A stretch of 64,000 bases of DNA from a virus (lineage: Duplodnaviria; Caudoviricetes): the IMG/VR virus record IMGVR_UViG_2844496579_000002, positions 1 through 64,000 of that record. One strand, given 5' to 3'. Made by a program: the position numbers and the translations under genes. Under the pieces are notes generated by a model that saw only the letters and a program-made list of their open reading frames with translations, searched no databases and was not told where the DNA came from. Below are positions 8,721-12,429 of this stretch, piece by piece (position 1 is the stretch's first letter; the number at the start of each line of letters is the position of its first letter).

Positions 8721-9059
8721 TCAGCCACTGCGGGTCTTTCCTATTTCTGCTGCTGCTTCCACGATGGCGCGGCGGGTCGCCTCATACGAGTGGTCCGGGT
8801 GCACGGAGACATGTTCGGATGAAAAACATTCGCCTTCCCATGTGAACACTTCCGTTTCGTGGTGCTTGATGTTGATGGTCAGCGCTAGCCTCACCGCCAG
8901 CCGCAGCGCGTCGCCGTCGTTTACCAAAGGATTCCATGATTCCTCGCTGCGGCTGCCTGGCTCAGATGCTTGCATCAGCCATCCGCTATCCAGCCGGATC
9001 CAATGGAATTCCAGGCCGGCAGCCTTCGCCGCCAGTTCCAGCAATTCACGATCTGTCAT
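8721..9059 (-). CDS. Phage hypothetical protein (WNPLxNDGDALRLAV family)
   Basis: N-terminal ~50 aa near-identical to 46336..46740. Confidence 0.75.
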   Translation of the reverse strand: MTDRELLELAAKAAGLEFHWIRLDSGWLMQASEPGSRSEESWNPLVNDGDALRLAVRLALTINIKHHETEVFTWEGECFSSEHVSVHPDHSYEATRRAIVEAAAEIGKTRSG

Positions 9060-9228
9060 CTTCCTTCTCCGGATTAGCCTTCACCCACTGTCTCGCCCAG
9101 CGCTCCATCAGTACGCCGGTATGCGCCCAGTTATCAGCGTGGCGGTCGATCAGGTGGAAGGCCACGGCGGGGTCGATCTTCGCCCAGTCTTGCGGGTCGC
9201 CGAAGTCGATGGCGGGTAGGTCGTTCAT
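9046..9228 (-). CDS. Phage hypothetical protein
   Basis: Translationally coupled in the early-left operon. Confidence 0.6.
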   Translation of the reverse strand: MNDLPAIDFGDPQDWAKIDPAVAFHLIDRHADNWAHTGVLMERWARQWVKANPEKEDDRS

Positions 9229-9935
9229 GCTTGCTCCGTTGCCATGGCTTCATGCTCAGCGCAGGCCGGGCATCCGTCATGATGGAAATGAAGAGGGTGG
9301 TGATGCGGGCAGATGGCTTCACCGCAAGTCCCGCATTCAGCATCGGGGCTGTGGGATAGGAGTTGATCAACGACAGCAGATAGACGCAGCCCATCCCGCG
9401 CCATCGCCACCAGCGCATCCCGCTCGGCTCGCGACAGGGTGACCGCTTCGCCATCCGTCTTGCAGTACGTAGGCCGCTGCGCGATGGCTTCGATTTCGTC
9501 TCGGGTCATGTTGGCTCCATTTATGAGACATTGCGGCGCCAGATGCGCCATATTTGCGCTGCCAACCTGCCGGACATCGTTGCTACCCGTGCAGGCATAG
9601 ATGTGATTGCTCGCCCGAGGACAGCGCTTATTCCCGCACACCGGGCACAGCACCATCCGCATATCCCCGAACGACACGGGGCGGCAGGTGGCGCACCAGC
9701 ACGGCTCAGCCACGTCCGCCTCCGTCCGTGCGGGGTGCTGGGCTGTCAGGGCGGCGCCAGAGTTGATGAGAAGCCCGAACGGATCAGAGCCAACATCCTG
9801 GGCGTTACGGCGCTCGCCGGTCCACGGGTTGAACAGCCATGCCGTCTTGCCGTTATGCTCGCGCCATTGGGCCGCATGGCTCGGGTAGGGCTTGCTCCAG
9901 CCGCTGGCCGGGTCGAATTTCATCAGATCATTCAT
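9225..9935 (-). CDS. Modular phage protein with Cys/His-rich units
   Basis: CxxC pairs; linkers QHPARTEADV and DEIEAIAQRPT...MARDG shared with prophage 3. Confidence 0.7.
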   Translation of the reverse strand: MNDLMKFDPASGWSKPYPSHAAQWREHNGKTAWLFNPWTGERRNAQDVGSDPFGLLINSGAALTAQHPARTEADVAEPCWCATCRPVSFGDMRMVLCPVCGNKRCPRASNHIYACTGSNDVRQVGSANMAHLAPQCLINGANMTRDEIEAIAQRPTYCKTDGEAVTLSRAERDALVAMARDGLRLSAVVDQLLSHSPDAECGTCGEAICPHHHPLHFHHDGCPACAEHEAMATEQA

Positions 9936-10533
9936 CGCTATCTCCTTTCTCGCCCGTCTGTGTAGCTGTCAAGGATTGCTTGACGACTGACGGGGACACG
10001 GCGGCGCGGGCATAAGCTTGCATCTGCCCAGCGCCATAAATCGGGCATTCCTCACCCTCCAAGTACAACGTGTCGAACGGCTTAGGTAGCGGCGGCAGCA
10101 CCACGGTACCGCAAGCACTGGCGCGGCTCTCCGGGGAGGTCGCCCCGACTTCAGCACCACCCTTCGCGCAATCCCCGCCGTCCTTGTCAGCCTGGGCAGT
10201 CGCCATCACGATGGGCTGCAAGGTGTAGCTGCCGTCAGCGTGGCGAAGAAAGGTAAAGCCGGCGTACCGTGCTGCGTTGATGATTCCTACCGGCACCGCC
10301 TCGCTGGCCTGGGGCGCAGACAAGGCAGCGTTCCAGGCATCCCACGCCAACTCGCGTTCGTAGGCCGTCAAATCGTCGCTGTCGCAATGTTTGGCGAGCC
10401 AGTCATCAAAGGTCATAGCCCGCGCCGAAGCGTATTTTCCCAACAACGCATGAGCGAATCGTATGAGGCCGTTCTTGTGTTGGATGGCAAACCCTGCGGC
10501 GAGCATTTCAATTTCGTTGTCGCTCGGTTTCAT
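9928..10533 (-). CDS. Modular phage protein
   Basis: Linkers APQASEAV, ADKDGGDCAKG, PSVVKQSLTATQTGEKG. Confidence 0.7.
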   Translation of the reverse strand: MKPSDNEIEMLAAGFAIQHKNGLIRFAHALLGKYASARAMTFDDWLAKHCDSDDLTAYERELAWDAWNAALSAPQASEAVPVGIINAARYAGFTFLRHADGSYTLQPIVMATAQADKDGGDCAKGGAEVGATSPESRASACGTVVLPPLPKPFDTLYLEGEECPIYGAGQMQAYARAAVSPSVVKQSLTATQTGEKGDSDE

Positions 10534-11618
10534 AGCTTGGCCTCGCTATCCGCAATCGCCTTTGACCTTCTGGCGCACTCACATTCGCTGGCCTGGGGCG
10601 CGGCATAGACCTGGGTTCCGTGGGGGAGGCCAGCCGCAGCGGGAAGCATGCGGATGCCAACGCGCGGGCCGTTCTCGTCGCGGCCTTCCCCGTGCCGGAA
10701 TACCTCGCCCACCGGCTCCCGCGCCTCCCCGGCCACACGGTCGGCCTGGGTCGCGGCATGCGCGCGTTCAATGTGGCCACCAACCCAGGCGGATTTCATA
10801 TCCGGTCCTGGGTCGCCGTCGATCCATTCAGTCTGCGGCAACCCGTGTCCGTCCAGCGCGCGCCAAGCGACCGCCTCCCCGGCTATAGGGGCGCGGTCCA
10901 CGGGGTTGCGCCAAAGTTGCGCGGCAAGGAACGGATCCTTCGCCAGCCGTTCCACCGAAACGCCTTGAGCCTCTCCGGCTGCAGGGGCGCTATGCGGCCG
11001 GGGCTTCGAACTGTTCGGGTACATGGCCCGGTCGAACTGCGCGGCGTGCCATACGGCTTGCCACACGTTGTAGGTCAACCCATCGGCGGCGAACGGACGC
11101 AAATCGCTGTCGTAGTAGGCCCGGCAACGTTGTTCGCTGTCGTATGGCTCGGCTACAGGGGCGCTTGCCAGGGCGTCAGGGGCCGCATCGATCAATGCCC
11201 GGTAGGCCAAGGTGGATCGCGCCGCGCTTTTTATGTTCGCGTTGAAGGCGTCGTACCACGCTTCCATCATTTTTGGCGTCGGCTTAATCGGCACCAACTT
11301 CCAATTTTCCGGCACGGCGCTAGGTGTATTCGCCAGGGCAGCGATTGCTGCGTCGATCCTTCTCAAATGGTACGAGTCACCCCGCCCGATTTCGATGCAG
11401 AGCTTCTTGTACTTGCCTAGGAGCGCGGCAGCATCTATCGCCCGCTCATCGCCCGCCTGCACGCCCTCCGCGCGCAGCTTGGACAGCAGGGCGTGAACAG
11501 CTTCGTACACGTAGGGTTTCAGGTCGGTCTGTCCGTGCTTGATCGTGAAGCCATGCTCCAGGAATACAGCGCGGATGGTGTCGTTCAGCCCAGGCTGGGC
11601 GGCGTTGTTCTCAGTCAT
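10530..11618 (-). CDS. Modular phage protein
   Basis: MTENNAAQPGL start; ALASAPVA/AGEA/APQASE linkers; paralog at 47704..48624. Confidence 0.75.
   Translation of the reverse strand: MTENNAAQPGLNDTIRAVFLEHGFTIKHGQTDLKPYVYEAVHALLSKLRAEGVQAGDERAIDAAALLGKYKKLCIEIGRGDSYHLRRIDAAIAALANTPSAVPENWKLVPIKPTPKMMEAWYDAFNANIKSAARSTLAYRALIDAAPDALASAPVAEPYDSEQRCRAYYDSDLRPFAADGLTYNVWQAVWHAAQFDRAMYPNSSKPRPHSAPAAGEAQGVSVERLAKDPFLAAQLWRNPVDRAPIAGEAVAWRALDGHGLPQTEWIDGDPGPDMKSAWVGGHIERAHAATQADRVAGEAREPVGEVFRHGEGRDENGPRVGIRMLPAAAGLPHGTQVYAAPQASECECARRSKAIADSEAKL
10886..11493. repeat. 608-bp near-identical repeat of 47877-48484
   Basis: Direct comparison; three substitutions spotted. Confidence 0.92.
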
Positions 11619-11826
11619 GGCTTTCCTTGGTGGTGGGCTGGGCGGCTAGTGCGGCCTTCGTTTCGTGCAGTTCATCAACGGCCCGCTGCAACATACGACC
11701 GTAGAAATCGGCCTTGAATTCGGAAACCGCCAGGCGGTCAGCCATGTGCTTTCGTCCAGCGGCATAGCCAGAGGCATAACCGTTCCCATAGACCCGCTCA
11801 TGGCGGAGTTTCGGTGTCGATTCCAT
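11611..11826 (-). CDS. Phage hypothetical protein (MESTPKLR...)
   Basis: Coupled start; ends in the shared AQPTTKE linker. Confidence 0.6.
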   Translation of the reverse strand: MESTPKLRHERVYGNGYASGYAAGRKHMADRLAVSEFKADFYGRMLQRAVDELHETKAALAAQPTTKESHD

Positions 11827-12203
11827 CACGCCTCTCCCTTCTGCTGGGCAATGGCGGCGTCTGCCTTTTCCAACGCCATCCGCGCAAAAGGAGACTTGTC
11901 CCCCACGGCGATAACGAAGGCGTGGCGCAAGTCTTGCAGCGCCTGCGTCAGGAGCAGAACATCCAGCGCATCGCCAGCAGCGGGAGCTTGGAAGTCGGCA
12001 TAGTCGCTGCTGGCCTCCCACTGGCGCTGCACGGATTCCACGTCACCCGACGGACACGTGCGTTCAAGCCAGCGTTCAAATGCAGACTGCTCATCCTCCC
12101 CCGTCGCTCCGGTGGGTATAGGGTGCGAGGTAGGGGCGGAAACCGGCTCAAGCGGCCCGGGAGCATCCTGGGAAAGGCCATGGGTGATTTCGTATTCGGT
12201 CAT
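11826..12203 (-). CDS. Modular phage protein (MTEYEITHGLSQDAPGPLEPV...)
   Basis: Linkers shared with 49554..50297. Confidence 0.7.
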   Translation of the reverse strand: MTEYEITHGLSQDAPGPLEPVSAPTSHPIPTGATGEDEQSAFERWLERTCPSGDVESVQRQWEASSDYADFQAPAAGDALDVLLLTQALQDLRHAFVIAVGDKSPFARMALEKADAAIAQQKGEA

Positions 12204-12429
12204 TTCAGGCTCCGGGGAAGAAGTATTCGATCGCGCGGCGGCAGATGAAGAAAATGACGATGTAGACAACGCCAAGGCCAGCGATAAAGCCAAGCAGACC
12301 CGCACGGATTAGCAGGCGCTCAACGAAGTCATATTCAGGTTCGGGTACGTCGCTGCTATCCATTTCGGATCTCCAGGCAATAGAAGGGCAGCCCCGGACA
12401 GACGGCGGGGTACGGGGCTGCAGGGGGAG

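Follow-up and report, generated by a model that had tools for sequence, protein, structure and literature searches.

The window analyzed here is a stretch of 64,000 nucleotides (nt), positions 1 to 64,000 of IMG/VR virus record IMGVR_UViG_2844496579_000002. Within it, prophages 2 and 3 each carry an array of short, near-invariant linker sequences separated by unrelated protein-coding cassettes. Both arrays are on the minus strand, and each makes up the distal portion of its prophage's early-left operon. As judged from the comparison of related loci, cassettes have been replaced wholesale between near-invariant, ordered joints, and the boundaries of replacement coincide with these joints. We consider it probable that the linkers are short-homology crossover joints for the in-frame exchange of cassettes, as had been proposed in an original prediction made from the DNA letters of the window.

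Linker families across Achromobacter

Positions 8700-12320, covering the prophage 2 array, were used as a DNA query against 62 genomes, each representing a single species of the genus. Array DNA was matched in 43 of the 62 genomes, mostly as pieces of 25–50 base pairs (bp) at 97–100% identity. Forty loci were fetched and combined with the two arms from the window, and linker families were assembled from 15-base words shared by at least six of the resulting 42 sequences. The six main families were a (ARAALASAPVAGEAQ, encoding ALASAPVA(GEA)), present in 34/42 sequences; q (LYAAPQASEAVRD, AAPQAS(EAV)), in 31/42; k (ALLSKLRAEGVQAGDE, ALLSKLRA), in 23/42; g (AAPAAGDAL), in 19/42; m (MTENNAAQPGLTD), in 18/42; and s (RAALSAQPGAQ), in 16/42. 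Some minor families were found beside these. All 165 DNA-level copies of the six families were in open reading frames (ORFs) of at least 82 amino acids (aa) and encoded the same peptides, and the order m<k<a<q<s was kept in each of the 40 sequences that had two or more of these linkers.

The joints, DNA segments of ≈20–55 bp, were of two kinds: in-frame, Ala/Pro-rich linkers (ALLSKLRA, ALASAPVAGEA, AAPQASEAV, APAAGDA and AALSAQPGAQ), and gene-boundary joints with a ribosome binding site (RBS) and a stop codon that overlaps the following start codon (AAIAQQKGEA-TGATG and AQPTTKE-ATGACTGAGAAC). Only the i and m joints and a gene-start block were located at gene boundaries, while k, a, q, g and s were inside open frames. 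A hybrid joint, SKLRA/PVA (TCCAAGCTGCGCGCCCCTGTAGCC), consisting of the left half of k and the right half of a, was observed in 18 sequences (for example, loci L062, L063 and L021). This is what a crossover between k and a, which are partly similar in sequence, would leave after loss of the intervening cassettes.

Linkers were also present in the early genes of virulent, N4-like Achromobacter phages, where Axy12 gp25 had the order m-k-a-a-q. In JWAlpha gp24, which its record annotates as Lar-like, the place between a and q is taken by a homologue of the m-to-k cassette from the window, showing that a cassette can occupy different slots; one cassette in two different slots is solid in single examples only.

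Linker a DNA was detected in 1/120 other genomes sampled from the family and in 0/400 sampled from the order, both samples having few genomes of the genus itself, and these samples gave no sign of a wide taxonomic spread of the linker DNA. The sole exact linker a 23-mer outside the genus among the 120 family genomes was at G495:C1:733957-733979. Within the 6.69-Mb genome, linker sequences were confined to the two arrays and to one further prophage, located near 1.97 Mb, and an explanation as a repeat of the host genome was rejected for this reason. Since the linker 23-mer was limited to these three prophage early regions, chance could be excluded; a genome search with a 19-mer at three mismatches gave many chance matches and was disregarded. 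The third prophage (G000:C1:1966500-1975500, locus L070), which is outside the window, encodes a 447-aa linker protein (L070:3344-4687, minus strand) with two copies of a plus variants of k and q.

Codon usage in the linkers

The codons of the linkers were nearly fixed. In LASAPVA, GCA, CCT and GTA were each used in 30/31 copies, compared with background frequencies of 0.16, 0.18 and 0.13, respectively, and GCT was used three times in APAAGDA in 17–18 of 18 copies. In pairwise comparisons of linkers, identical residues had the same codon in 88–100% of cases. For homologous cassettes from the same loci, the mean was 57% (264 pairs), or 47–70% where protein identity was below 90%. The linker codons are thus fixed beyond the need of the peptide and beyond the homologous DNA alongside, and the linkers are therefore conserved as DNA.

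For family a only, the 62 genomes were also searched in a codon-blind manner, using a pattern that allowed every possible codon at each residue of ALASAPVA. Among 50 matches, 33 were identical 23-mers from 25 genomes, nine differed by 1–2 nt, and eight were unrelated. Convergence at the peptide level was ruled out for family a by this search.

Homology breakpoints and cassettes

Column conservation was 95–100% in the linker cores and fell to the background level (≈40%) within 5–10 bases outside. When pairs of linker copies from different loci were compared (n = 2572), homology in the flanks was found on neither side in 2473 pairs, on one side in 96 and on both sides in three. That 96 pairs had homology on one side, and just three on both, shows that homology nearly always ends at the linker where a neighboring cassette is shared. 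Where the flanking DNA was homologous, its identity was 74–87%. The ends of high-scoring segment pairs (HSPs) were enriched ≈3-fold at the six main linkers: for HSPs of at least 80 bp between loci, 29.6% of 409 distinct ends were at most 12 nt from a main linker, compared with 10.7% at random, and for HSPs of at least 90% identity the corresponding values were 35.1% and 12.1% (n = 74).

The 194 inter-linker segments fell into 103 similarity clusters, including 80 singletons; clustering was by single linkage, by which composite segments get chained together. In the a-to-q slot alone, the 21 segments measured 24–193 aa and formed 18 clusters, while the k-to-a slot held 14 segments in 12 clusters and the m-to-k slot 11 segments in nine. 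The original prediction had named three results that would count against it: only two or three alleles per slot, linkers no more conserved at synonymous sites than the flanking DNA, and breakpoints placed at random relative to the linkers. None of these appeared, and its reading of the linkers as in-frame recombination joints for the shuffling of mini-domains is supported.

Few of the cassettes could be named by family searches. Pfam matches (E ≤ 1e-3) in 65 linker proteins were limited to DUF551 (five), a DnaJ-type zinc finger (five), Lar restriction alleviation (two), DUF3850 (one) and DUF7181 (one). A protein search returned 49 relatives. Nearly all were single-member clusters of Achromobacter or Bordetella origin with the name "hypothetical protein", and the part of the query matched by each was just 7–69%, often at 85–100% identity. 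The Lar-type units, in two of the 65 proteins and in JWAlpha gp24 by its record annotation, hint at anti-restriction activity. We presume that the array encodes accessory proteins of the early phase, some of which may have anti-restriction or counter-defense units.

Comparison of the two arrays

The two arms were compared directly by blastn (7001-14500 against 44501-52500). All block pairs listed in the original prediction were recovered at 93–100% identity, with slightly shifted ends (Table 1). The accompanying claim that the arms are unrelated along most of their length was overstated, because 11497-10886 and 48488-47877, ≈612 bp, differ by just three mismatches. This block begins at linker k and ends within an a-like RAP(I/T) joint (GCGCCCCTA), which is followed by IAGEA in one prophage and by TSE in the other. 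Upstream of the block, the m island (≈60 bp) is shared again and the ≈100 bp between m and k are unrelated, so that the replaced m-to-k cassette sits between two identical islands. The 612-bp block, common to the two co-resident prophages, appears to represent a recent multi-cassette exchange.

The blocks were also said to have the same order in both arms, which is true for the listed pairs and fails at the distal end, because a 158-bp block (8896-9053/46574-46731, 93% identity) has a different place with respect to those at 9390-9501 and 9711-9743. Other details of the prediction were borne out: linkers do repeat within one protein, as in prophage 3, where a occurs three times at the DNA level and q occurs two times; the 214-aa phrog_12600 gene of prophage 3 occupies a slot left empty in prophage 2; and an annealase gene, Sak4-like in prophage 2 and RecT-like in prophage 3, is present upstream in each phage. 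With respect to named domains it was less accurate. A DUF551-like unit had been noted in the window, and no window protein matched DUF551 at E ≤ 0.01; that family occurs among the related linker proteins. The predicted CxxCxGxG zinc finger gave a weak match to PF00684 in the gene at 49554-50297 (E-value 7.5e-6), its score of 26.6 bits being below the Pfam cut-off of 32.7.

Proposed mechanism and alternative explanations

In the mechanism that we propose, a phage would meet a second phage or a resident prophage in one cell, and homologous recombination across two linkers, by a phage annealase/exonuclease pair or RecA, would swap the intervening cassette. Frame, order and expression would be kept through the swap, because each linker has its own sequence, or "address", and no cassette needs its own promoter. 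Only cassettes with matching linkers would stay exchangeable, and this would keep the linker DNA homogeneous. We infer that Sak4 or RecT could catalyze the exchange, that the array proteins may be anti-defense effectors, and that the arrangement may be a selected "system" rather than a self-maintaining by-product.

Several observations weigh against crossover at the linkers. The evidence for exchange is comparative throughout, and the loci were selected for their DNA similarity to prophage 2, which favors canonical linker DNA. With lengths of 19–54 bp, the linkers are short for efficient homologous recombination, near the lower end of its range. Of the HSP ends, about two thirds were more than 12 nt away from any of the six main linkers; by an approximate, post hoc hand count, ≈30 of the 42 remaining ends listed for the HSPs of at least 90% identity were at minor recurrent joints (AAIAQQ, PTGATG, DKDGGD, a variant PxAGEA, MTxQNNAA and AQPTTKE). 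Short conserved islands were also found in the adjoining early region, 15000-18620, in 14/62 genomes, fewer than for the array, so that mosaicism of the island type extends beyond the array itself. Of the six such islands that were read, five were intergenic, with stops in all frames, an RBS or hairpins; they are classical gene-boundary sequences within the same early operon, of which the array is the in-frame version. Just 14 Pfam matches were found among the 65 linker proteins, and most units are without a named function. Finally, all linkers are translated, and a role at the peptide level may therefore exist.

That last point leads to an alternative in which the peptides themselves are needed, as flexible connectors, protease sites or docking motifs, and in which the cassettes would be exchanged by illegitimate recombination, with selection retaining just those products that are joined at such peptides. 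This would fit the uniform peptides of all 165 copies, which are rich in Ala, Pro and Gly like typical inter-domain linkers. It would also fit the AF2 model of the 362-aa prophage 2 protein, where the k helix is predicted to stop at SKLRA, and the a and AGEA joints to be between helices or in low-confidence stretches. What it leaves unexplained are the fixed synonymous sites, with rare codons in 30/31 copies and a same-codon fraction of 0.88–1.00, against 0.57 in the cassettes. Moreover, 33 of the 42 linker-like codon-blind matches were base-identical and none had a distinct codon set, and illegitimate joining would not recreate identical islands of 23–45 bp. We consider this explanation unlikely. 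Somewhat more improbable, in our view, is ordinary phage mosaicism without a special role for the linkers, in which the islands would be leftovers of once continuous homology between recently related phages and would look conserved through being short and picked out by their similarity. The blastn ascertainment with prophage 2 and the short islands in the adjacent early region speak for this explanation, and mosaic genes of the Ea22 type are well known (PMC10834534). Yet the same islands had unrelated flanks in 2473/2572 pairs, were strictly ordered and occurred in at least 25 species, and the homologous cassettes were far more diverged than the islands (flank identity of 74–87%, same-codon fraction of 0.57); random remnants would not be the same few sequences everywhere.

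We also considered a dedicated enzyme encoded beside the recombination genes, for instance an endonuclease of the HNH or homing type or some other site-specific factor, that would recognize the linkers and start the exchange. Two HNH genes flank sak4 in prophage 2, an HNH gene adjoins the linker proteins in both Axy12 (gp23) and JWAlpha (gp23), and HNH families were matched by two of 94 upstream ORFs scanned at other loci. There was, however, no HNH gene among the prophage 3 ORFs scanned, the upstream recombination modules vary between loci, and the six linker families differ in sequence, making a single recognition site unlikely. We give such an enzyme very little weight.

Short-homology crossover at the linkers is thus the explanation that we favor. 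A more far-reaching version is that the linkers constitute a selected, genus-wide "address code", integron-like at the level of protein domains and shared by temperate and virulent phages. Each address would admit any cassette with matching half-joints, to be expressed at once, in frame or through the built-in coupled stop and start. A common pool of roughly at least 100 mini-domains, some of them anti-restriction units, would allow early host-takeover or counter-defense proteins to be rebuilt combinatorially, and the near absence of linker DNA beyond the genus would reflect separate address dialects, one for each host-bound pool of phages. We put this forward tentatively, as a possible but doubtful extension.

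Relation to known systems

The general principle has precedents in the motifs of T-even gp38, in the boundary sequences of lambdoid phages and in mosaic Ea22, and the array is an unusually clean, genus-wide case of motif-guided modular exchange. We found no description of this array in the literature covered, which consisted mainly of the main texts of open-access papers. Lambdoid boundary sequences are short conserved DNA at module borders, proposed as sites of homologous exchange; boundary "linker" sequences and the modular theory of evolution were reportedly treated by Susskind and Botstein in 1978 and by Clark et al. in 2001. To this classical type belong the i and m joints, together with the intergenic islands 17496-17543 and 18012-18083, and the array linkers resemble it in being short conserved DNA flanked by unrelated modules. 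The array differs in that most joints are inside frames, the frame is kept, and at least six ordered addresses are found in one or two genes.

In the T-even gp38 adhesins, the glycine-rich motifs GRM1–5 separate hypervariable segments in a fixed order, and exchanges in or near the conserved motifs yield chimeric proteins (PMC3157838). The array is similar in having short, conserved, in-frame motifs of strict sequence and synteny with hypervariable segments between them. In gp38, however, the motifs have been proposed to make up one structural core of the receptor-binding domain, with the variable parts as loops (PMC3157838), whereas in the array whole, unrelated mini-domains of 24–193 aa vary, Ala/Pro linkers or gene junctions are conserved, and the products are early, non-structural proteins. 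A common core was not visible in the 362-aa AF2 model, which is of low confidence (pTM 0.29).

Ea22 of lambda is a mosaic protein of the exo-xis region with portable end domains such as DUF551, and its variants have a common N-terminal and coiled-coil part with alternative C-termini (PMC10834534). Ea22 and the array are alike in position, in the early-left operon between the recombination genes and xis. They differ in that the array has multiple slots, and DNA-invariant joints are not described for Ea22 in the available part of PMC10834534. The Ead_Ea22 signature (PF13935) was matched by 0/65 linker proteins at E ≤ 1e-3 and by none of the window proteins. In T4-type phages, intergenic motifs of an early promoter and a stem-loop (PeSLs) flank novel ORFs in hyperplastic regions and supply them with expression signals, as mobile regulatory cassettes (PMC2839356, PMC4122927). 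Here, too, short conserved motifs are proposed to mediate modular shuffling, but the array joints are coding and include no promoter-like sites.

Phage recombinases of the Rad52-like kind can act on short or diverged homologies between phages and prophages, and intragenic exchanges of ≈100 bp are frequent (PMC3945230). By analogy with this work, the enzymology of linker exchange is plausible. The exchanges measured there were at pre-existing homology, with no fixed, ordered, dedicated joints in the part available, and Sak4 has no occurrences in the main text of PMC3945230.

If the linkers are true crossover joints, they would provide a concrete, testable rule for the quick rebuilding of early accessory proteins, in which whole mini-domains are swapped at fixed addresses, with frame and expression kept, across the temperate and virulent phages of one host genus. 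This would bear on the long dispute over whether phage mosaicism arises by homology-guided exchange or by random joining followed by selection. As a principle, such exchange is already established for tail-fiber adhesins and gene-boundary linkers. Cutting early proteins of unknown function at the linkers would yield a catalogue of independent units that could be assayed singly, for example for anti-restriction activity, and the linkers could be natural splice points for engineering.

Gene content and expression signals

The positions of the array genes, linkers and shared blocks are listed in Table 1.

Table 1. Genes, linkers and shared islands of the two arrays. Positions are those of the window; a slash separates prophage 2 from prophage 3.
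Feature	Position	Strand	Remarks
Prophage 2 array	12213-8721	-	followed by terminator-like hairpin, DUF4224 excisionase, integrase
HNH endonuclease genes	13556-14374, 15083-15682	-	flank sak4, prophage 2
Sak4-like single-stranded DNA annealing protein	14163-14813	-	upstream of prophage 2 array
SSB-like and Gp157/Gam-like genes	12430-13550	-	between sak4/HNH genes and prophage 2 array
Gene-start linker block, 72 bp	12142-12213	-	RBS, start codon, MTEYEITHGLSQDAPGPLEPV; identical to 50236-50307
Prophage 2 gene 1, 125 aa	11826-12203	-	linkers t, g, i
Linker t (APTSHPIPTGATG)	12097-12139	-	in prophage 2 gene 1
Linker g (APAAGDA)	11960-11987	-	in prophage 2 gene 1
Linker i (AAIAQQKGEA-stop/start)	11829-11859	-	in prophage 2 gene 1
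71-aa cassette gene	11611-11826	-	end AQPTTKE and start of next gene form gene-boundary linker
362-aa multi-unit protein, prophage 2	10530-11618	-	order m, k, a, three AGEA joints, q
Linker m (MTENNAAQPGL)	11585-11619	-	in 362-aa protein
Linker k (ALLSKLRAEGVQAGDE)	11441-11494	-	in 362-aa protein
Linker a (ALASAPVA)	11149-11175	-	in 362-aa protein
Linker q (AAPQAS)	10585-10609	-	in 362-aa protein
201-aa protein, prophage 2	9928-10533	-	linkers q (10293-10317), c (DGGDCAKG, 10158-10182), PSVVKQSLTATQTGEKG (9933-9995)
236-aa Cys/His-rich protein, prophage 2	9225-9935	-	blocks 9711-9743 and 9390-9501 (ERDALVAMA) common to prophage 3
112-aa phrog_5086 gene, prophage 2	8721-9059	-	block 8896-9053 matches 46574-46731, at another array position
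Terminator-like hairpin	8655-8673	-	closes array, upstream of xis
DUF4224 xis	8408-8638		downstream of prophage 2 array
Prophage 3 array	50307-46068	-	RecT-like/RecE-like genes (51718-53476) upstream, AlpA-type gene downstream
RecT-like annealase	52472-53476	-	prophage 3
RecE-like exonuclease	51718-52506	-	prophage 3
Prophage 3 gene 1, 247 aa	49554-50297	-	prophage 2 start block, linkers t and g, extra cassettes including DnaJ-type CxxCxGxG zinc-finger-like unit
214-aa phrog_12600 gene	48913-49557	-	in slot empty in prophage 2
16-codon mini-ORF (MTYTNTAAIAQQKGEA)	48866-48916	-	almost all linker i; read directly from sequence
306-aa multi-unit protein, prophage 3	47704-48624	-	linkers m, k, a, AGEA
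325-aa multi-unit protein, prophage 3	46730-47707	-	two a-type joints, two q joints, then c, PSVVKQ
Distal genes of prophage 3, 134 aa (phrog_5086) and 110 aa (ERDALVAMA block)	46068-46740	-	prophage 2 modules in permuted order
AlpA	45819-46067		downstream of prophage 3 array
Shared block	12142-12213 / 50236-50307		72 bp, 100%
Shared block	12097-12139 / 49924-49966		43 bp, 100%
Shared block	11959-11987 / 49705-49733		29 bp, 93%
Shared block	11821-11859 / 48861-48899		39 bp, 97%
Shared island	11585-11644 / 48591-48651		at end of gapped 782-bp HSP
Shared block	10587-10605 / 47354-47372		19 bp, 100%
Shared block	10293-10317 / 47164-47188		25 bp, 100%
Shared block	10158-10196 / 46996-47034		39 bp, 97%
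Shared block	9933-9995 / 46738-46800		63 bp, 95%
Shared block	9711-9743 / 46341-46374		97%
Shared block	9390-9501 / 46224-46335		112 bp, 95.5%
Intergenic islands, 45-72 bp	16774-16818, 17114-17166, 17496-17543, 18012-18083, 18480-18535		93-100% identity in several other genomes of the genus

In Pfam and PHROG scans, nearly all array proteins of both prophages were without a Pfam or named PHROG family, including gene 1 of prophage 2, which matched no family of either kind. The AF2 model of the 362-aa protein, built from a mosaic alignment of 49 rows, had a mean pLDDT of 63.8 and consisted of separate helical units. It is compatible with independent helical units and too weak to name folds. The 72-bp gene-start block has two copies in the whole genome, both within the window. 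In prophage 3, the 306-aa protein includes the 612-bp block common to prophage 2 and differs in the m-to-k cassette and the C-terminus, and phrog_37212 matches residues 241–301 of the 325-aa protein. The mini-ORF overlaps by ATGA/TGATG with both of its neighbors, at the stop of the 214-aa gene and at the start of an 82-aa gene, and looks like an emptied slot that has kept its translational coupling.

The 214-aa phrog_12600 protein had no Pfam match and holds an HPPCQRW motif, which resembles motif IV (PCQ) of the cytosine-5 DNA methyltransferases. The shared ERDALVAMA block includes, within 9399-9425 and 46233-46259, GCTGGTGG, which is the Chi octamer as defined for E. coli.

The region from the recombination genes to xis is one early transcription unit in these Achromobacter prophages. 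Between 8400 and 12500, no promoter-like sites were found (1.1 expected), terminator-like sites were not above shuffled sequences (4, compared with 3.4 expected), and the array had no Rfam match at E ≤ 0.1, ruling out a reading of the linkers as regulatory elements. One terminator is present, at the end of the array, and the 34 bp around this hairpin recur at seven other loci.

Besides the two with HNH families, the 94 ORFs scanned upstream of the arrays at other loci included seven RecE-like, six Erf-like and two Sak4-like proteins, counts that are lower bounds from 2–4 kb of upstream DNA. Two of these ORFs matched a reverse transcriptase PHROG (phrog_1423, best E-value 6.6e-112).

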